From assembly GCA_964639335.1 (NCBI GenBank), contig CAZXCJ010000001.1:1-60025 (forward strand): 60,025 nucleotides of DNA, written 5' to 3'. This stretch comes from an uncultured Gammaproteobacteria bacterium. Its GTDB lineage: Bacteria > Patescibacteriota > Patescibacteriia > UBA1558 > S5-K13. The translations under genes were made by a program, and so were the position numbers. Shown piece by piece: positions 2,953 to 17,578 of the stretch. Positions within the stretch are counted from its first letter, which is position 1, and each line of letters starts with the position of its first letter. A model generated the notes under the pieces. The model made no database searches, was not told the DNA's origin, and was given only the letters and a program-made list of their open reading frames with translations.

Positions 2953-3057
2953 ATTTTTTTCCTTTTCTTAATTCTTATTTAAAAAAACAAAAAACCGCTT
3001 ATTGCGACCCCTTTAGTTATCAAATTGTTATACTTGTCCCTACTCCTTACTCCCCCC

Positions 3058-3111
3058 CCTGCCTTGCCGTAGTTCCCCGCTTTTTTAGAAAAGTGGGTGA
3101 ACGTAGGCAGG
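3058..3111 (+). repeat. GC-rich nested-hairpin module (family member without a tRNA-derived tail)
   Basis: Outer arms cctgcct 3058-3064 / aggcagg 3105-3111, gtag...cgta junction, inner hairpin ccccgctttt..aaaagtggg. A G-U pair is possible only on the plus strand. Confidence 0.45.
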
Positions 3112-3118
3112 TTGTTCC

Positions 3119-3511
3119 TTACTTCAAATACTTCTCATATTCTTTTCTTTTCTTATCTTCAGCTCTTAATTGCGGAACTCTATTCAAATAATATTGTATA
3201 ATGGTAATCAGCCAAATTAATAAAAAGCCCCACCACAATATCAAAACAAATCTAATTTGAAAATAGGGAACTCTAAATTTTCTGAAAAGTATAAGAAATA
3301 AACTAAGCAAACCCCCAATAAACAAAAAATTGGTTAATTTAGTATATAAAACTTTTTGATATTTATCTTTGGCCTTTTTGGAAAAAAAATACTTTAAAAA
3401 AATAGCCATTAAAATAAATGCTAGGGAAATCGCCAAAATAATAAAAAAAGTTCCTGGCTTAATGGCCGGGGGATAAGCGTCAAAAAGATATTGAAAACTT
3501 ATAATAGACAT
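3119..3511 (-). CDS. small integral membrane protein
   Basis: Four predicted TM helices; no recognisable motif. Confidence 0.45.
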   Translation of the reverse strand: MSIISFQYLFDAYPPAIKPGTFFIILAISLAFILMAIFLKYFFSKKAKDKYQKVLYTKLTNFLFIGGLLSLFLILFRKFRVPYFQIRFVLILWWGFLLIWLITIIQYYLNRVPQLRAEDKKRKEYEKYLK

Positions 3512-6638: not shown

Positions 6639-6884
6639 TTACTTTTTACTTACTAACTTCTCCTTTCCAATTCTAGACCATTTCTTAATTTGTCTTTCTC
6701 TTCTCATGGCCTCAATTTTAGTTTTAAACTCTTCAAAATATATAATTTTGACAGGTCTTCTTTGCTTAGTATATTTTGCACCTTTTCCTAAATTATGTTT
6801 CTTTTCTCTAGAATCTAAATTTTTACAATACCCTGTATAAAATGAGCTATCCCTGCACTTAGCTATATATGTATAAAATGACAT
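6639..6884 (-). CDS. GIY-YIG nuclease-superfamily protein (YhbQ/UPF0213-like)
   Basis: FYTYIAKC..SFYTGYCKNLDSREKKHNLGKGAKYT...RERQIKKW. Confidence 0.8.
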   Translation of the reverse strand: MSFYTYIAKCRDSSFYTGYCKNLDSREKKHNLGKGAKYTKQRRPVKIIYFEEFKTKIEAMRRERQIKKWSRIGKEKLVSKK

Positions 6885-6904
6885 AAAATATATTTAAAAC
6901 GTTT

Positions 6905-7031
6905 GTCCCTCGACTCCTCATTACATTCGTCGCTCGGGACACTCGATTCGTTTTTAAAAAGAATGGTTGGAATGAAGCGAAGCGAAATGAAAACCACGAG
7001 TGAGTCCCGAATTTATGAGGGACGAATCGAG
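6905..7031 (-). other. GC-rich structured spacer between tRNA-Ala(UGC) and the GIY-YIG gene
   Basis: 11-bp long-range complement (6940-6950 with 7023-7033) and 5-bp stems gtccc/gggac at 6905/6936 and 7004/7019. Confidence 0.4.
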
Positions 7032-7108
7032 TGGTGGACCTGGAGAGACTCGAACTCTCGACCCCCTGCTTGCAAAGCAGGTGCTCTAGCCAACTGAGCT
7101 ACAGGCCC
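7032..7108 (-). tRNA. tRNA-Ala (anticodon UGC), CCA encoded
   Basis: Cloverleaf gggcctg/caggtcc with G3:U70, anticodon loop ttTGCaa, T-loop ttcgagt. Confidence 0.93.
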
Positions 7109-7168
7109 TTATTTTATTATATATTAATCTTATATTATCGAATAACTATTTAAAATCTAATTGTTATT

Positions 7169-7281
7169 TGCGAAGTTGGGAACCAACTGTCGCAGACCCT
7201 GAGCCCGTCGAAGGGTCGAAGATCCTCCGTAGTCCCTCACTTTTTAAAAAAGTGGGGGGCGAAGGGGGAAGCTACAGGCCC
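7169..7281 (+). repeat. GC-rich multi-hairpin element ending in a 12-nt complement of the tRNA-Ala 5' end
   Basis: Hairpins at 7169-7194 and 7195-7218; nested module 7223-7269 (tcctcc-gtag-[hairpin]-cgaa-ggggga); 7270-7281 is identical to 7097-7108. Confidence 0.55.
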
Positions 7282-7401
7282 ATGTAGGAATTTTCAATTA
7301 CCAATTATCAATTTACAATAAATTTTTAATTATTGAATTATTAATTAAGTATGGCCGCGCCACAAACCCGAGTAAGGAGTTTACGACGAGCGAGTGGTTT
7401 A

Positions 7402-7478
7402 TGGTGGGTCCTATAGGATTCGAACCTACGGCCTTCTCGGTGTAAACGAGACGCTCTAACCAACTGAGCCAAGGACCC
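7402..7478 (-). tRNA. tRNA-Val (anticodon UAC), CCA encoded
   Basis: Acceptor gggtcct/aggaccc, anticodon loop ttTACac, T-loop ttcgaat. Confidence 0.92.
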
Positions 7479-7546
7479 GTATGAATGTAAATAACAAATT
7501 ACAAATTTCAAATTACAAATAAAAACTTTTTAAAAAGAACTACTTG

Positions 7547-7597
7547 TCCTCCGTAGCTCCGAATCTTGTGAGGAGCGAAGGAGGAAGCCAAGGACCC
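7547..7597 (+). repeat. nested-hairpin module ending in a 12-nt complement of the tRNA-Val 5' end
   Basis: tcctcc-gtag-gctcc..ggagc-cgaa-ggagga-agc followed by caaggaccc; 7586-7597 is identical to 7467-7478. Confidence 0.55.
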
Positions 7598-7717
7598 AAT
7601 AAATTAATTTTGAATTATCAATTTTTAATTTCAAATAAATTTTTAATGAATTAATCTTTAATTAAAAATTTTGGGATTCAGATTTAAATTAAAATTTAAA
7701 ATTCAAAATTCAACTGC

Positions 7718-7806
7718 TGGTGCCAGAGAGAGGACTTGAACCTCCACGAGAAAAAATTCTCACAGGCCCCTCAAGCCTGAGCGTCTACCAGTTCCGCCAC
7801 TCTGGC
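7718..7806 (-). tRNA. tRNA-Leu (anticodon GAG), long variable arm, CCA encoded
   Basis: Acceptor gccagag/ctctggc, anticodon loop ttGAGgg, type II variable arm, T-loop ttcaagt. Confidence 0.9.
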
Positions 7807-13161: not shown

Positions 13162-13187
13162 TGGTGTCCCAACCAGGACTTGAATCC
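13162..13187 (-). pseudogene. orphan tRNA 3'-end fragment (T-loop, acceptor, CCA)
   Basis: rc reads ggattcaagtcctggttgggacacca. It shares ttcaagtcct and the terminal acca with the tRNA-Leu 3' end. No matching 5' half is present. Confidence 0.4.
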
Positions 13188-13225
13188 CATTATACAGCGG
13201 AACAGGCCTGAATCTAATACTAAAA

Positions 13226-13356: not shown

Positions 13357-13374
13357 TTGTTCCACGTGGAACAA
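13357..13374. repeat. 18-bp palindrome ttgttccacgtggaacaa (copy 2)
   Basis: Exact copy. Confidence 0.8.
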
Positions 13375-13496
13375 TTGTAAATAAACAGTAGGGGCGTAAA
13401 CTATTCGTTAAGTAGTATTGTAAATAGCGCTGGTGGCAGCGCCATGAACTTGAATCAAGGAATAAACCTTAGCTCATGACAAAGACAAATAGTTCA

Positions 13497-13570
13497 TGGA
13501 GCGGGATACGAGAATCGAACTCGCGTTTATAGCTTGGGAAGCTAGCGTATTGCCACTATACTAATCCCGC
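13497..13570 (-). tRNA. tRNA-Gly (anticodon CCC), CCA encoded
   Basis: Acceptor gcgggat/atcccgc, anticodon loop ttCCCaa, T-loop ttcgatt. Confidence 0.9.
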
Positions 13571-13680: not shown

Positions 13681-13698
13681 TTGTTCCACGTGGAACAA
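13681..13698. repeat. 18-bp palindrome ttgttccacgtggaacaa (copy 3)
   Basis: Exact copy, 3 nt beyond the stop of the 13702 gene. Confidence 0.8.
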
Positions 13699-14079: not shown

Positions 14080-14152
14080 AAACTCTTTGTTTATTTACCC
14101 ATTTTTTTAGACTTTCATCAAAAGATTAGCTAGTTTAAGCTAAAAACTAACC

Positions 14153-14215
14153 AAATTGTTCCACGTGGAACATTATAAAATCAACAGCTTCGCATAGGCA
14201 GGCGTGGAACAATTT
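14153..14215. repeat. 63-nt composite repeat: the palindrome split by a ~30-nt insert (the 9-nt right arm cgtggaaca is present on both sides of it)
   Basis: aaattgttccacgtggaaca-ttataaaatcaacagcttcgcataggcagg-cgtggaacaattt; near-identical to 15283-15345. Confidence 0.75.
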
Positions 14216-15233: not shown

Positions 15234-15282
15234 AAAATTAAAATTATATACTATAATGTATTATTTAAGCCAAGAACTACCT

Positions 15283-15345
15283 AAATTGTTCCACGTGGAA
15301 CATTATAAAATCAACGTCTTCGCGCAGGCAGGCGTGGAACAATTT
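15283..15345. repeat. 63-nt composite repeat (second copy)
   Basis: Differs from 14153-14215 at four positions inside the insert. Confidence 0.75.
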
Positions 15346-15380: not shown

Positions 15381-16343
15381 TTATTTTAAAGAATCTAAAT
15401 ATTTTTGAGCATCTAAAGCTGCCATACACCCTGTTCCAGCGGAAATTATGGCTTGTTGATATTTAGAATCCATCACATCTCCACAAGCGAAAACTCCATT
15501 TTGAGAGGTTTTAGTGGTCCATGGCTCTATAATTTTAATATAGCCTTTATCATCTAATTCTATTTGTTCTTTAAATAACTCTGTATTAGGAATATGGCCA
15601 ATCGCTAAAAACACTCCATCTACTGCCTGTTCTTCTGTTTTGTTGGTCTGATTATTAAATAATTCTACTTTTTCTAATTTCTCATCGCCTAAAAACCTCT
15701 TAATTTCTGTAAAGCTAATTATTTCTATATTTTTGTTGTTTAAAACTTGCTCAATACGAACTTTTTCACCATTTAATTTATCACCTCTATTCACAAGTTG
15801 AACTTTTGAAGTAAATTTAGTTAAAAATAACGCATCTACCAAAGCTGTATTACCTGATCCCAATACAATTACTTTTTTATCTTTAAATAAAGCGCCGTCG
15901 CATGTTGCGCAAACTGCCACTCCTTTTCCCCAAAATTTTTCCTCACCTTCTATGTTTAATTTTCTGGGGTTTGTGCCCGTAGATACTATCAATGCCTGAG
16001 TTAAATACTCTTGTTTTTCTCCTTGAATTTTAATCTCATTATCATGGATATCCACATTTTTTGCGACGTCGCTTTCAATCCGACAGCCATACTTTTTTGC
16101 TTGTTCTCTCATCTTCATCATTAATTCAAAACCCTCAATGCCATCTGGAAAACCCGGATAATTTTCTACAATAGTAGTGGTAGTTAACCAGCCACCCGGC
16201 TGAGGGCCCTCTAATAATAAAGGTTCAAATCCGGCTCGAGCTAAATAAAGCCCAGCAGTTAGACCAGACGGGCCAGAACCTAAAATTATAACTTTTTCTT
16301 TATTCAACCCGTTAGATATTTTTTGTTTTATTTTGTCCGTCAT
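15381..16343 (-). CDS. trxB: thioredoxin-disulfide reductase
   Basis: GSGPSGLTAGLYLARAG, redox-active CATCDG, second dinucleotide-binding GSGNTA. Confidence 0.92.
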   Translation of the reverse strand: MTDKIKQKISNGLNKEKVIILGSGPSGLTAGLYLARAGFEPLLLEGPQPGGWLTTTTIVENYPGFPDGIEGFELMMKMREQAKKYGCRIESDVAKNVDIHDNEIKIQGEKQEYLTQALIVSTGTNPRKLNIEGEEKFWGKGVAVCATCDGALFKDKKVIVLGSGNTALVDALFLTKFTSKVQLVNRGDKLNGEKVRIEQVLNNKNIEIISFTEIKRFLGDEKLEKVELFNNQTNKTEEQAVDGVFLAIGHIPNTELFKEQIELDDKGYIKIIEPWTTKTSQNGVFACGDVMDSKYQQAIISAGTGCMAALDAQKYLDSLK

Positions 16344-16524: not shown

Positions 16525-16917
16525 TTATTTTAAAATTTTTTCAGCTCCACAATAAATTTCCTCAATATTTAAAATAACAGCTGATTTAGCTTCTGTTGTA
16601 GGGTTATGTCTTAATTCTTCTACCCATTTAACTGTTTCTTCAAAAATAGGACCATCCTGATAGATTTTTACATTACCCTTCAACTGATAAGACTTCCCGC
16701 TCTCTTTATCTAGAATAACAAAAGACATCTGAGGATTCTCTTTCAAATTTTTCTCTGTTTTAAAAAATTTATTATTCGCAATTAAAATCTGACTATCATT
16801 ATAAACTTTCAAAAACTTAACATAAATAAGATTCGGTACATTCTCCTTAGAAGATGTGCCCAATATATATAGTCCCTGATCATTAATTGCTTTTTGAATA
16901 TAGTCTGGAATATTCAT
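16525..16917 (-). CDS. pyridoxamine 5'-phosphate oxidase-family FMN-binding protein
   Basis: Size and split-barrel-like pattern only. Confidence 0.5.
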   Translation of the reverse strand: MNIPDYIQKAINDQGLYILGTSSKENVPNLIYVKFLKVYNDSQILIANNKFFKTEKNLKENPQMSFVILDKESGKSYQLKGNVKIYQDGPIFEETVKWVEELRHNPTTEAKSAVILNIEEIYCGAEKILK

Positions 16918-16930
16918 ATATTTATTAATT

Positions 16931-17179
16931 TTAAATTTTTATTAATCTTTTATTTCTAAAAGCTATTCCTGAAGCAGTTTTTAAATATTTTTCGAAATCT
17001 AAGGCAACTTTTTTATCTTCAAATGCAGAATAAAAAACAATTTTCCAAGGCTTAAATTTATTTGTATATACTGATTTCCCAGAATTATGACCATTTATCC
17101 TATTTTTAATAGTTTTAGAGAATCCTGTATAAAATCGTTTAGGATAATTAATACTTTGAATAATATAGACGTAGTACAT
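16931..17179 (-). CDS. GIY-YIG nuclease-superfamily protein
   Basis: YYVYIIQS...RFYTGFSKTIKNRINGHNSGKSVYT..PWKIVFY. Confidence 0.8.
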   Translation of the reverse strand: MYYVYIIQSINYPKRFYTGFSKTIKNRINGHNSGKSVYTNKFKPWKIVFYSAFEDKKVALDFEKYLKTASGIAFRNKRLIKI

Positions 17180-17310
17180 ATTAATTTTTTTAAATCTAAC
17201 GAACTGGCCGTGCCATCCGAAGCGCAGATAATAATTATTTTAAACTTTTGTTGTCTAAGCAAGCCCTGCTACGCTAAAGCTACGCAGGGCATCCTTCGCT
17301 ACGCGAAGGA
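17180..17310 (-). other. structured spacer between tRNA-Ala(GGC) and the GIY-YIG gene
   Basis: 10-bp hairpin 17290-17299/17303-17312; 7-bp stem gccctgc/gcagggc at 17263-17290; GC-rich block at 17203-17224. Confidence 0.4.
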
Positions 17311-17386
17311 TGGTGGACTCGGGGAGACTCGAACTCCCGACCTTCTGCATGCCATGCAGATGTTCTACCAACTAAACTACGAGCCC
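17311..17386 (-). tRNA. tRNA-Ala (anticodon GGC), CCA encoded
   Basis: Acceptor gggctcg/cgagtcc with G3:U70, anticodon loop atGGCat, T-loop ttcgagt. Confidence 0.9.
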
Positions 17387-17410
17387 TTAAATAATTTTAA
17401 TAAATCAATG

Positions 17411-17462
17411 TGGCCAGCTGCCTGTCCGCTGAAGCTTTAGCGAAAGCGGAAGCTATAGGCCC
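17411..17462 (+). repeat. nested-hairpin module ending in a 12-nt tRNA-Ala-5'-end-like complement
   Basis: tccgct-gaag-ctttag-cgaa-agcgga-agc-tataggccc. The 12-mer matches tRNA-Ala(UGC) at 11/12 positions and the adjacent tRNA-Ala(GGC) at 8/12. Confidence 0.5.
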
Positions 17463-17578
17463 AAATTAAATTTTAAATAAACCTTATAACTTACAGCTTA
17501 CGGCTTATAACTGCTCCTTACATTATAACATTTTAAAAATTATATCAACATTTAAACATTATGCATATATATTCATAA

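Follow-up and report, generated by a model that had tools for sequence, protein, structure and literature searches.

A putative homing-type cassette with a structured leader and a minimal GIY-YIG nuclease gene directly behind the CCA end of a tRNA-Ala(GGC) gene

The free-standing GIY-YIG homing genes of T-even phages (Seg and Mob) are intergenic, lie beside tRNA genes and are present or absent between close relatives. SegB is found within the T4 tRNA gene cluster, and the spread of such genes is presumed to proceed through a double-strand break and its repair, with co-conversion of the neighbouring sequence. The cassette described here resembles Seg and Mob genes in position and in presence or absence between relatives. 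However, its protein is a catalytic core of about 80 aa without the linker and DNA-binding domain of Seg or I-TevI, and by sequence and fold it falls with SLX1 and UPF0213, not with the I-TevI type. The cassette is also chromosomal, absent from the phage and plasmid collections searched, abuts the CCA of the tRNA gene to the base, and has a conserved structured leader.

SLX1 and UPF0213 (YhbQ-like) proteins give the best sequence and structure matches to the cassette protein, and the catalytic Tyr, Tyr, Arg, His, Glu and Asn are conserved. Unlike SLX1, the cassette protein has neither a RING/PHD finger nor an Slx4 partner, and the tRNA-abutting context, structured leader and insertion polymorphism of the cassette are not known for the SLX1/UPF0213 family. 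Non-intron insertion sequences in the rRNA genes of CPR bacteria likewise carry GIY-YIG ORFs, and processing of the precursor RNA at a closing stem presumably removes these insertions (PMC11270868). Like the cassette, these insertions (with GIY-YIG or 23S_rRNA_IVP ORFs) are small ORFs in or beside stable-RNA genes of the same bacterial group, but they lie inside rRNA genes, whereas the cassette comes after tRNA or tmRNA genes, at their 3' end.

Genomic islands and prophages that target tRNA and tmRNA genes share the 3'-end target class of the cassette and its orientation to the RNA gene. In contrast to these islands, which are 5-100 kb long and join within the gene, the cassette is about 0.35 kb long, joins after CCA, and lacks both an integrase and a direct repeat of the tRNA 3' end at its flank. 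The HEARO or omega-RNAs that accompany IscB and TnpB (IS200/IS605) also place a structured RNA at an element boundary beside a compact nuclease gene, and IS200/IS605 elements share with the cassette hairpin-rich ends and ORF-less derivative copies. The cassette nuclease is, however, a GIY-YIG rather than a RuvC/HNH enzyme, it is accompanied by neither a Y1 transposase nor an identifiable guide segment, and the cassette RNA, unlike omega-RNA, is predicted to pair with the CCA end of the neighbouring tRNA.

Horizontal transfer of GIY-YIG genes out of Patescibacteria has been predicted (PMC12455944). In Sinorhizobium meliloti, a GIY-YIG gene is transcribed both as a leaderless mRNA and as a longer form with a repressive leader (PMC13285730); that this gene belongs to the cassette family is only a lead. 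In the openly accessible full-text literature, we found no published description of the tRNA-leader-GIY-YIG arrangement.

The window (the whole stretch of DNA analysed, 60,025 nucleotides) contains two modules of a tRNA gene, a structured spacer and a small GIY-YIG ORF, and their two proteins are only 34% identical. The initial annotation had proposed this as a recurring module, and the module is indeed real, since it occurs twice in the window and at dozens of loci in many phyla. The features of the module studied here are given in Table 1. All of those first listed (tRNA-Ala(GGC), 131-nt spacer, two hairpins, GC block and 82-aa ORF) are present. The perfect 10-bp hairpin (17312-17303 with 17299-17290), which includes the last two CCA bases, was both read directly and predicted by folding; the gccctgc/gcagggc stem lies at 17290-17263, and the tRNA-like 12-mer gggcctatagct at 17462-17451.

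Table 1. Features of the tRNA-Ala(GGC) and GIY-YIG locus (positions in the window)
Feature	Position	Strand	Basis or remark
Extended -10 promoter-like TGTTATAAT of the tRNA-Ala(GGC) locus	17522..17530	-	Read directly; function inferred
5' remnant of earlier resident tRNA-Ala(GGC) gene	17410..17462	-	The "hairpin module" of the initial annotation
tRNA-Ala(GGC)	17311-17386	-	ARAGORN; Rfam tRNA 67.3 bits
Spacer, 131 nt	17180-17310	-	Between tRNA-Ala(GGC) and GIY-YIG ORF
Conserved structured leader, "type A" layout, begins with the tRNA's CCA	17205..17313	-	Covariance model
P1 local hairpin, strand S (CA-TCC-TTCGC) and strand P (GCGAA-GGA-TG)	17290..17312	-	Read directly; folded
P2 hairpin GCCCTGC-GTA-GC-TTTA-GC-GTA-GCAGGGC	17263..17290	-	Compensatory changes
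AT-rich linker	17228..17257	-	Sigma-70-like site TAGACA-18-TATTAT, consensus scan
GC block	17227-17205	-	Window sequence
Strand Q (CTGCGC-TTC-GGA-TGG)	17213..17227	-	Covarying partner of S and CCA
Small conserved hairpin TGGC-ACG-GCCA	17205..17215	-	Holds trailer "ggccagtt"
GIY-YIG nuclease ORF, 82 aa	16931-17179	-	Pfam PF01541
Right junction of element	16918..16933	-	L091 (filled), L087 (empty) and window compared
Empty-site sequence, L087 type	GGTCCACCA / ATCAATTTAAA		

The tRNA-Ala(GGC) of the window is functional and has both G3.U70 and an encoded CCA. It belongs to a divergent "GGGCTCG" type with an unusual D-stem (GUUU/GAAC), and the same divergent type is found in the related locus L089. 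The sigma-70-like site in the linker has 10 of 12 consensus matches, but the number of such sites in the region does not exceed the shuffled expectation; it could be a candidate promoter of the element itself and is offered as a lead only. A search for an intrinsic terminator between the tRNA and the ORF gave no terminator-like site. Four other independent assemblies contain the 623-nt region from the promoter to the ORF without any difference, and a fifth departs from it by a single mismatch; the locus is therefore not an assembly artefact. The same-strain contigs (L081-L085), with an identical protein and no variation, were used solely for this purpose.

We then analyzed the protein. The ORF product matches Pfam PF01541 with 59.6 bits (cut-off 22.6; E 3.8e-16), and Y5, Y17, G19, R27, H31, N32, E63 and N76 are invariant among 33 homologues; we assume their catalytic roles by analogy with I-TevI and UvrC. 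The AlphaFold model (pLDDT 91.5) is a single domain with the elements E-E-H-H-E-H-H, and both this model and the Foldseek matches agree with the GIY-YIG fold, an alpha/beta fold of a three-stranded sheet with flanking helices. Sequence matches in the PDB were to UPF0213 (1zg2, E 3.6e-8) and SLX1 (E 1.5e-6). The best Foldseek matches were Slx1 and At-HIGLE with a TM of about 0.7, and UPF0213 was also matched; the E value was 5.6e-4 for Slx1 against about 1 for UvrC. Both sequence and predicted fold assign the protein to the SLX1/UPF0213 type, of which it is a minimal nuclease domain. The C-terminal RING/PHD zinc finger of eukaryotic SLX1 is absent from this 82-aa single-domain protein, and of the I-TevI/Seg architecture of catalytic domain, linker and DNA-binding domain it has the catalytic core only.

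No named family was matched by the ORF protein in NCBIfam or PHROG, and PADLOC returned only a chance match to a defence system (13.8 bits). No homologue was detected by tblastn among 50,697 phage and 72,556 plasmid records. Across CPR classes, homologues are 70-86% identical, and a profile search found 2502 clusters at E<=1e-10, although linkage to tRNA genes is not universal among the family members.

In 53 of the 80 homologous loci found with the protein, a tRNA or tmRNA gene on the same strand ends 67-199 nt upstream of the ORF, and these loci come from many phyla. The commonest tRNA is Ala-GGC; Val, Gly, Ser, Met, Ile, Arg, Tyr, His and Leu tRNAs are also followed by the element. tRNA-Ala and tmRNA both have the 3' end ...CUCCACCA, and most of the 80 loci outside the 53 have either ...CTCCACCA immediately 5' of the motif or tandem copies of the motif. 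The second GIY-YIG family of the window is tRNA-linked likewise. Leader types and protein families are mixed and matched like modules (L099). In several Bradyrhizobium species, the element lies behind the same tRNA, tRNA-Ala(GGC), a pattern for which long vertical persistence or domestication would account just as well as mobility. In B. sp. ORS 111, it is located around 105.5-106 kb of NZ_CP120701.

The boundaries of the element were read from two relatives with an identical tRNA-Ala(GGC) and the same Pyr_redox gene downstream. In the empty locus (L087), the sequence runs CCA/ATCAA/TTTAAATTAATAATA...ATG. In the filled locus (L091), about 345 bp comprising the motif and the ORF lie between CCA and TTTAAAATTAATAATA. 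The stop codon and "TTTAAAATTAATAA" at the right junction are common to the flank of the empty site. This sequence comparison delimits the spacer and ORF as a discrete insert, with its left end exactly after CCA and its right end at the ORF stop codon, and it reveals that sibling genomes with an otherwise identical site differ in whether they carry the insert. Presence or absence at a conserved site with precise boundaries is what is expected of a homing gene. An integrative island was considered and rejected, as the insert consists of the leader and the 82-aa ORF only, with no integrase and no attR-like repeat at the right junction. Nor is there an ORF for a Y1 (HUH) transposase TnpA in the unit or adjoining it.

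Copies at other sites were also found. In L093, nearly the same motif and an 83%-identical protein lie behind tRNA-Ala(TGC), and the Leu-Val-Ala tRNA cluster is occupied differently from that of the window: a family-2 copy behind tRNA-Val has a premature stop, and an ORF-less motif lies behind tRNA-Leu. Decayed, ORF-less and tandem leader copies all occur. The Ala-TGC copy of L093, its pseudogenised family-2 copy and the ORF-less leaders agree with the homing-gene cycle of invasion, degeneration and loss, with copies at new sites.

These comparisons bear on the possibility that the protein is a domesticated host nuclease with a housekeeping or repair role, whose gene is simply expressed as part of the tRNA operon, with the leader as an ordinary cis-regulatory 5' UTR. 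Such a factor might resolve R-loops or stalled forks where transcription of stable-RNA genes is heavy, or help tRNA 3' maturation. The high conservation of the protein across CPR classes, its SLX1/UPF0213 fold, the very large size of the family and the stable position in Bradyrhizobium would all suit a host function. However, siblings differ in presence at an identical site, close relatives carry the element behind different tRNAs together with pseudogenised and ORF-less copies, and tandem leader copies occur. Of the many tRNA genes, just one or two carry the element, the same niche is used by two divergent families within one 60-kb window, and a host factor would not need to abut CCA to the base. 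We consider a host function unlikely.

The spacer was then compared across loci. At gathering thresholds, Rfam 15 matched only tRNA and tmRNA in the window and 20 loci, leaving the spacer unmatched, and a permissive Rfam scan of 16900-17500 gave chance-level matches only. A regular-expression census of "stem-TTC-GC..GC-TWC-stem" hairpins in the window did no better than shuffles and missed known copies, and was replaced by a covariance model. This model scores the window leader at 103.7 bits (E 2.7e-22), the sole full copy in the window. In 516 kb, 56 of its 58 matches are on the ORF strand, nearly all of them directly 3' of a tRNA and 5' of an ORF.

Two mutually exclusive pairings of strand S emerged, and the CCA end is sequestered by both. 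In the local hairpin P1 (10 bp), which takes up the last two CCA bases, the S-P pairing is kept at 78 of 81 positions in 27 loci with 11 distinct combinations; in the long-range pairing S-Q, 17313-17299 pairs with 17227-17213 as 6 bp, a UUC/UUC internal loop and 6 bp, and 138 of 144 positions are kept in 48 loci with 17 distinct combinations. None of 5000 permutations was as good in either case. In the type A alignment, P1 is 98.6% paired, and S-Q has compensatory changes at 9 pairs with 92.5% of cells paired, compared with 34-41% in slid controls. The two alternative type A structures as a whole have 95.1% and 92.5% of cells paired (slid controls, 34-49%), and none of 500 shuffles did as well. 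Their forced-fold energies in the window are -37.2 (S-P) and -36.6 (S-Q) kcal/mol. A long-range pairing of the GC block had been suspected in the initial annotation; this is right in kind, but the conserved covarying partner is the CCA-proximal strand inside the trailer and not the leader upstream of the tRNA.

The outer stem of P2 has compensatory changes at all six of its pairs (59 distinct sequences), and its 3x3 internal loop is conserved and purine-rich, usually GUA/GAA. The small hairpin TGGC-ACG-GCCA is kept in most loci with loops of 2-4 nt, and a compensatory TGGT..ACCA is found in L051 and L044. Over 59 distinct model-aligned copies, 18 of 22 pairs have compensatory changes, and on the tRNA-sense strand G.U pairs outnumber A.C pairs by 31 to 7. 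The triplet after CCA varies between loci, with 13 different triplets, and both partner strands match it; the xxx'-TGG segment beside the small hairpin pairs with CCA-xxx. The alignments show the spacer to be a conserved structured element whose helices covary on the tRNA-sense strand.

The hairpins could also act at the level of DNA. As single-stranded or cruciform DNA, like the ends of IS200/IS605, they would be nicked by the GIY-YIG enzyme, xxx'-TGG would be a "guide" pairing with the CCA-xxx junction, and the unit would be moved or copied after any "...CCA". Tandem arrays in which each unit ends in GCCA and the next starts with xxxTTCGC (L018, L007 and L044) are in line with this reading, as are the reverse-complement relation of P2 to the S-Q hairpin (stem-TTC-GC..GC-TWC-stem), the solo hairpins of this type inserted in D-loops of tRNA stumps, and the cutting of branched or hairpin DNA by the nearest relatives of the protein. 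GIY-YIG enzymes, however, are hydrolytic and form no covalent intermediate, and one of them alone is incapable of strand transfer; the unit has no HUH, DDE or recombinase gene. Moreover, the covarying triplet lies inside the element and not in the target, G.U pairs far outnumber A.C pairs when the sense strand is read, the two strands form asymmetric internal loops, and the unit is always oriented the same way with respect to tRNA transcription. The strand bias favours RNA, and we hold the DNA-level reading to be quite unlikely.

Could the RNA direct the nuclease? The leader RNA, possibly fused to the 3' part of the tRNA, might be a scaffold or guide that gives the 80-aa nuclease its specificity for tRNA-gene 3' ends. 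The conserved structured RNA begins exactly at the element end beside the target, as the omega-RNAs of IscB and TnpB do, and the protein has no DNA-binding domain of any kind. The modular shuffling of leaders and proteins in L099 points the same way, and the conserved non-Watson-Crick internal loops resemble protein-binding sites. Yet we know of no RNA-guided GIY-YIG enzyme, no variable guide-like segment with complementarity to the flanking DNA turned up, the pairing segments have their complement in the 5' end of the element itself, and many copies retain a leader but have lost the ORF. A guide of this kind is a long shot. It is likewise very unlikely, in our estimate, that the leader is a working RNA partner directing the SLX1-like core to tRNA-gene 3' ends or a bistable switch sensing tRNA 3' processing. 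As a partner, the tRNA-linked RNA would bind the nuclease and direct it by shape or by base-pairing around the CCA junction; as a switch, the leader would license nuclease synthesis according to the processing state of the neighbouring tRNA 3' end.

The region 5' of the tRNA has another origin. It consists of tRNA positions 1-12 (17462-17451), an inserted hairpin (17450-17425; TCCGCT-TTC-GC-TAAA-GC-TTC-AGCGGA) and a degenerate D-loop piece caggCAGCTGGccac (17424-17410). In L087 and L091, the orthologous tRNA is intact and begins with the identical 12-mer (GGGCCTATAGCTCAGCTGG), whereas the functional tRNA of the window differs (GGGCTCGTAGTT), and "cagctgg" is the D-loop of the intact L087 tRNA gene. 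An orthologous remnant is found in L089, and similar remnants lie upstream of 10 of 86 tRNAs scanned. Judged from these matches, the "leader hairpin" is the broken 5' stump of an older resident tRNA-Ala gene. The remnant would belong to the 5' leader of the tRNA precursor, because the promoter-like TGTTATAAT is upstream of it; "aaaatgttataatgta" likewise lies 5' of the tRNA in L087 and L091.

The initial annotation had instead paired this leader with the trailer as a processing stalk around the tRNA, as in rRNA operons. Its coordinates were off: the leader "agctggcc", placed at 17416-17423, lies at 17419-17412, and the trailer "ggccagtt", placed at 17203-17210, lies at 17209-17202. The 8-bp complementarity with one G.U does exist in the sequence. 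However, it is not beyond chance, as 756 of 1000 dinucleotide-preserving shuffles (84-nt leader and 131-nt trailer, at most one G.U) give at least 8 bp; the best real helix is a different one of 10 bp, which was equalled in 140 of the 1000 shuffles. The proposed helix appears in neither the minimum-free-energy nor the centroid fold. Nor is it conserved or covarying in orthologues: the closest filled relative (L091) has the element without the leader module, the empty L087 has neither, and in L089 the leader is the tRNA remnant. The trailer 8-mer lies within the conserved (U)GGC-NNN-GCC(A) hairpin, and its long-range partner is a different, covarying strand, which begins at the CCA of the tRNA. 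A stalk enclosing the tRNA is scarcely credible.

Taken as a whole, 16931-17313 on the minus strand is probably a selfish homing-type cassette of about 380 bp, a structured leader and a minimal GIY-YIG gene directly after the CCA of tRNA-Ala(GGC). That the element is an insert is seen in the alignment of filled and empty sites; every mechanistic step past this, including the way of movement and the role of the RNA fold, we infer. Read-through from the tRNA promoter would transcribe the cassette, and a weak promoter of its own in the AT-rich linker may add to this. The leader RNA would pair with CCA and the first following bases, either locally (S-P) or as a long-range stalk (S-Q) with the interior looped out. 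These helices may mark or organise a cut that parts the tRNA from the nuclease mRNA, like the removal of ribosomal intervening sequences, and would probably also set the amount of nuclease translated. The nuclease would cut DNA at an unoccupied tRNA 3' end or close to it, or a DNA structure at that place, and repair from an occupied copy would spread or maintain the cassette. Imprecise repair could leave broken 5' tRNA stumps with inserted hairpins, such as 17462-17410, and could replace the resident tRNA by the divergent tRNA-Ala(GGC).

Several observations stand against homing. An 80-aa catalytic core has no DNA-binding domain for target recognition, and its nearest relatives, SLX1 and UPF0213, are structure-specific repair nucleases and not homing enzymes. 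No homologue turned up in the phage and plasmid collections searched. Classical homing needs two-sided homology, which is present within the population (L087 and L091) but leaves moves between different tRNAs unexplained. The link of the nuclease to the tRNA 5' stumps is circumstantial.

As far as we found in the literature searched, this cassette would be an undescribed, widespread mini mobile element that sits behind the last base of tRNA and tmRNA genes. If this is true, very common tiny genes annotated merely as "GIY-YIG nuclease family protein" would be carried by a mobile element that occupies one precise and unusual position, the base following CCA in tRNA and tmRNA genes. A conserved structured RNA missing from Rfam would be gained, and there would be an explanation for the puzzling GC-rich trailers, stumps of tRNA genes and replaced tRNAs of CPR genomes. 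If the RNA-partner or switch reading were true, the cassette would represent a new class of RNA-dependent mobile nuclease system, the smallest known. Direct testing is possible in the cultivable carriers Bradyrhizobium tropiciagri, B. macuxiense, B. semiaridum and B. sp. ORS 111. The element would be a natural parasite obliged to return an intact tRNA 3' end to its host, and it would raise a sharp biochemical question, that of how an 80-residue core without a DNA-binding domain finds its target.

The locus that the initial annotation had described on the minus strand was found as read: a tRNA-Ala(GGC) gene, a 131-nt spacer and an 82-aa open reading frame (ORF) matching the GIY-YIG family (PF01541, E 3.8e-16), with a perfect 10-bp hairpin that takes the last two CCA bases into its stem, a gccctgc/gcagggc stem and a GC block in the spacer, and a tRNA-like 12-mer upstream. 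The same 623 nt is identical in four other assemblies and has one mismatch in a fifth; since it recurs in this way, the locus is not an assembly artefact. The window is AT-rich (GC content ~30%), and its genes have their homologues in Patescibacteria/CPR. An opposite-strand ORF of 117 aa (17087-17440, plus strand), which spans the tRNA and the spacer, is almost certainly spurious.

Close homologues of the 82-aa protein number in the hundreds and come from many CPR lineages (66-86% identity among the 120 matches listed). Scanning one genome per species, we found at least 583 loci and retained 80, with hosts including CPR, Alphaproteobacteria (among them cultivated Bradyrhizobium), Verrucomicrobia, Acidobacteria, Desulfobacterota and Marinimicrobia. 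In 53 of the 80 loci, a same-strand tRNA or tmRNA gene ended 67-199 nt, mostly 100-160 nt, upstream of the start codon. The commonest was tRNA-Ala(GGC) (16 loci), followed by tmRNA (at least 10); tRNAs for Val, Gly, Ser, Met, Ile, Arg, Tyr, His and Leu were also used. Most of the remaining loci had ...CTCCACCA immediately before the spacer motif, which is a tRNA or tmRNA end missed by ARAGORN or a remnant of only 8-11 nt, and in others tandem motif copies displaced the tRNA further from the ORF. At one locus (L033, 2700-3000), two direct copies of the tmRNA 3' end GATTCCCGCCATCTCCACCAG are separated by ~190 nt and the GIY-YIG leader follows the second, reflecting either another insertion at the same site or a tmRNA end carried along by the element.

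Features of the locus and related elements (window coordinates; S, P and Q, pairing strands of the leader; xxx, variable triplet; xxx', its complement)
Feature	Position	Strand	Pattern or remark
tRNA-Ala(GGC)	17311-17386	minus	
GIY-YIG ORF, family 1	16931-17179	minus	82 aa
10-bp hairpin	17312-17303 / 17299-17290	minus	
tRNA-like 12-mer	17462-17451	minus	gggcctatagct
Strand S		tRNA-sense	CCA, then xxx-TTC-GC...
Strand P		tRNA-sense	GC-GAA-xxx'-TG; perfect complement of S, also covering CA
Hairpin P2		tRNA-sense	GCCCTTC-GTA-GC-loop-GC-GAA-GAAGGGC; 3x3 G.A-type internal loop; always after P
Strand Q		tRNA-sense	...GC-TWC-xxx'-TGG; pairs CCA + xxx; UUC/UWC internal loop, then GC-rich helix
Small hairpin		tRNA-sense	(T)GGC-NNN-GCC(A); Q leads into it
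Long-range S-Q helix	17313-17299 / 17227-17213	minus	CCA-TCC-TTC-GCGTAG with CTGCGC-TTC-GGA-TGG
Family-2 element, same design	6639-7031 (ORF 6639-6884); tRNA-Ala(TGC) 7032-7108	minus	81-aa GIY-YIG
ORF-less minimal trailer behind tRNA-Val	7352-7404	minus	CCA-TAAAC...GTTTG-TGG into TGGC-GCG-GCCA
ORF-less minimal trailer behind tRNA-Gly(CCC)	13434-13499	minus	CCA-TGAACT...AGTTCA-TGG into TGGC-GCT-GCCA
tRNA-Ala-TGC 5' stump	7170-7281	minus	GGGCCTGTAGCT (equals the tRNA-Ala-TGC start), then inserted TCC..TTC-GC..GC-TAC-GGAGGA hairpin; later CAGTTGG D-loop relic
tRNA-Val 5' stump	7540-7597	minus	GGGTCCTTGGCT (equals the tRNA-Val start), then inserted TCC..TTC-GC..GC-TAC-GGAGGA hairpin
tRNA 3'-half-like fragment	13162-13188	minus	gggattcaagtcctggttgggacacca; T-arm, acceptor strand, CCA
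Palindrome, four intergenic copies	13357-13373, 13681-13697, 14156-14172, 15286-15302		TTGTTCCACGTGGAACA(A)
82-nt repeat	14134-14215 / 15264-15345		90% identical
PNPOx-like gene	16525-16917	minus	
Pyr_redox gene	15381-16343		
ORF, 23S rRNA intervening-sequence protein family	2591-2839	minus	match from profile position 35 on
GC-rich hairpin	3050-3120	minus	CCTGCC-TAC-G...-TAC-GGCAAGGCAGG

The spacers listed are built on one plan, in AT-rich CPR as well as in GC-rich Bradyrhizobium. It occurs in two layouts that are circularly permuted relative to each other: type A (S, P, P2, linker, Q), as in the window, and type B (S, hairpin, Q, linker, P, P2), as in the closest filled relative (L091). By reading, 13 different triplets xxx occur among the loci, matched in both P and Q. 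The local pairing S-P (helix P1) was kept at 78 of the 81 positions compared across 27 loci, the long-range pairing S-Q at 138 of the 144 compared across 48 loci, and none of 5000 permutations was as good in either case. When 14 type A copies were aligned, the local-hairpin structure had 95.1% of cells paired with compensatory changes in 6 pairs, and the long-range structure 92.5% with 9 compensatory pairs; for both, 0 of 500 shuffles were as good and slid controls reached 34-49%. A covariance model built from this alignment located a single full copy in the window, at 17205-17313 (103.7 bits), and 58 matches in 516 kb of fetched loci, 56 of them on the ORF strand; practically all were either immediately downstream of a tRNA or tmRNA and ahead of the ORF, or ORF-less copies behind another tRNA. 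Among 59 distinct model-aligned copies, an alignment biased towards the model, 18 of 22 pairs showed compensatory changes. The spacer matched no Rfam 15 family.

A DNA-hairpin element in the style of IS200/IS605 is a less likely, rival explanation of the cassette. G.U pairs outnumbered A.C mismatches by 31 to 7 (p ~1e-4), and therefore the pairing strand is the tRNA-sense strand, which points to RNA. The covariation thus lies on the RNA-sense strand. S-P and S-Q are mutually exclusive, each sequesters the tRNA 3' end, and their forced-fold energies in the window are nearly equal (-37.2 and -36.6 kcal/mol).

To compare sites, we retrieved orthologues of the upstream TrmB-like gene. One relative (L087, TrmB 77% identical) has a pristine empty site, in which TrmB is followed by an extended -10 promoter (TGTTATAAT), a tRNA-Ala(GGC) starting GGGCCTATAGCTCAGCTGG..., 29 nt and a Pyr_redox gene. 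L091, whose GIY-YIG protein is 86% identical to that of the window, matches L087 in its tRNA, which is identical, and in its downstream gene, and carries ~345 bp, a type B leader plus the ORF, between CCA and the TTTAAAATTAATAATA common to L087; the ORF stop codon lies within the common flank. The two are a filled-versus-empty pair with exact boundaries, and the cassette is a discrete insert after CCA whose orientation is fixed with the tRNA. In the window, the element is separated from the Pyr_redox gene by the PNPOx-like gene and, beyond it, an ORF of 32 aa; since both are missing here in four relatives (L087, L088, L089 and L091), they represent a further lineage-specific insertion beside the element.

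The element also moves and decays. In another genome (L093), a protein 83% identical with nearly the same leader is encoded downstream of tRNA-Ala(TGC); this tRNA belongs to a Leu-Val-Ala cluster that the window also has (7032-7806) and that is occupied differently there. In the L093 cluster, tRNA-Leu is followed by an ORF-less family-2 leader, tRNA-Val by a family-2 gene interrupted by a premature stop and tRNA-Ala by a family-1 element, whereas the window has a minimal ORF-less hairpin after tRNA-Val and an intact family-2 element after tRNA-Ala. Type A elements follow tRNA-Ala(GGC) in unrelated gene neighbourhoods (L092, L094), in one locus (L099) a family-2-like protein comes with a leader of family 1, and four (L007, L018, L034, L044) have tandem leader copies. 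A domesticated repair or processing factor is another, less likely rival explanation; the pattern of gain, decay and loss is that expected for a selfish element.

The family-2 protein of the window is only 34% identical to the 82-aa protein, and its metagenomic relatives (>=60% identity) also lie directly behind tRNA-Ala, -Ile or -Gln. Its leader starts with CCA followed by CTCGATTCG and ends with CGAATCGAG-TG, then a GTCCC..GGGAC hairpin. The minimal trailer form was also seen before GIY-YIG genes in two other loci (L098 and L102).

Upstream of the tRNA, the 12-mer is the same as bases 1-12 of the intact tRNA in L087 and L091; it differs from the start of the functional tRNA of the window, GGGCTCGTAGTT. 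It is followed by an inserted stem-TTC-GC..GC-TTC-stem hairpin and a degenerate D-loop piece, cagCAGCTGGcc. Taken with the relatives, this stump indicates a break in the D-arm of the resident tRNA-Ala(GGC) gene, whose function has passed to a divergent, element-bearing copy. At the equivalent locus, a relative with the same GGGCTCG tRNA type (L089) has the orthologous remnant and a second one, in which positions 1-22 of a tRNA are joined to a perfect 20-nt palindrome; L088 has two remnants there. Such 5' stumps occurred upstream of 10 of the 86 tRNAs scanned, all in CPR genomes and most at tRNAs with the leader motif, with breakpoints after tRNA positions 12, 15, 22, about 34 or about 68. We infer that they arose when breaks connected with the element were repaired imprecisely.

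These remnants bear on the processing stalk that had been proposed to enclose the tRNA. Its two 8-mers exist, although at slightly different positions from those first assigned (17419-17412 and 17209-17202). A helix of >=8 bp with <=1 G.U arose in 756 of 1000 dinucleotide shuffles of the same composition (84-nt leader versus 131-nt trailer), and the proposed helix was in neither the minimum-free-energy nor the centroid fold. Compared with the relatives, the leader is a gene remnant, agctggcc being a D-loop relic of an earlier tRNA gene, and the trailer 8-mer belongs to a conserved hairpin with another partner. The comparative data decided against the stalk.

Other repeats were seen. Three CPR loci (L002, L089, L093) have GC-rich palindromes of 20 nt, perfect or nearly so (CCTGCCTGCCGGCAGGCAGG, CCTACCTGCCGGTAGGCAGG), inserted exactly into the D-loops of tRNA stumps or close to these; they could be small mobile hairpins of a separate family. 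Two of the four TTGTTCCACGTGGAACA(A) copies fall within the 82-nt repeat, and a similar AATTGTTCCACGTAGAATAAT lies upstream of a tRNA promoter in the unrelated locus L092; this palindrome could serve as an operator, or could be a further small repeat element. The tRNA 3'-half-like fragment stands ~40 nt behind tRNA-Arg(CCT), where ARAGORN called no tRNA. The intervening-sequence ORF is apparently N-terminally truncated or frameshifted, because its match begins so late in the profile; the GC-rich hairpin before it resembles the tRNA-linked hairpins in style.

Y5, Y17, G19, R27, H31, N32, E63 and N76 of the nuclease are invariant in 33 homologues, so that by sequence the active-site signature is intact. 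The closest solved structures by sequence were UPF0213 BH0048 (1zg2, E 3.6e-8) and SLX1. The AlphaFold model was confident (pLDDT 91.5) and best matched Slx1, At-HIGLE and UPF0213 (TM ~0.7), with UvrC only at E ~1; the protein is a bare catalytic core without a DNA-binding domain. When 1.84 billion representative proteins were searched with a profile, 2502 clusters were found at E<=1e-10, almost all of 80-130 aa. Many of these homologues (e.g., P0076, P0216, P0218) have 100-130 aa with the domain starting at residue 25-45, probably because the ORF was called too far upstream, into the structured leader. The 82-aa protein matched no NCBIfam or PHROG family, PADLOC gave a chance-level match only, and phage and plasmid collections held no homologue.

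The cassette would be transcribed by read-through from the tRNA promoter, as supported by the lack of terminator-like sites between the tRNA and the ORF. A promoter of its own is possible (TAGACA-18-TATTAT, 17257-17228), such sites being not above chance. The helices may organise the separation of tRNA from mRNA and tune expression, much like the stems closing ribosomal intervening sequences; rRNA insertions of CPR also encode GIY-YIG ORFs (PMC11270868). The nuclease would cut DNA near unoccupied tRNA ends or structured DNA, and repair from the occupied copy would spread the cassette; an RNA-dependent nuclease is a third, less likely rival explanation. Because the tRNA is identical in filled and empty alleles, any target would have to extend across the CCA/flank junction, which the insert breaks.

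Full-text searches of the literature yielded no description of the tRNA/structured leader/GIY-YIG arrangement. Horizontal transfer of GIY-YIG genes from Patescibacteria has been predicted (PMC12455944). The element is probably of a known kind, the free-standing homing-type nuclease gene; what is new is its precise niche at the tRNA 3' end and its dedicated structured leader.
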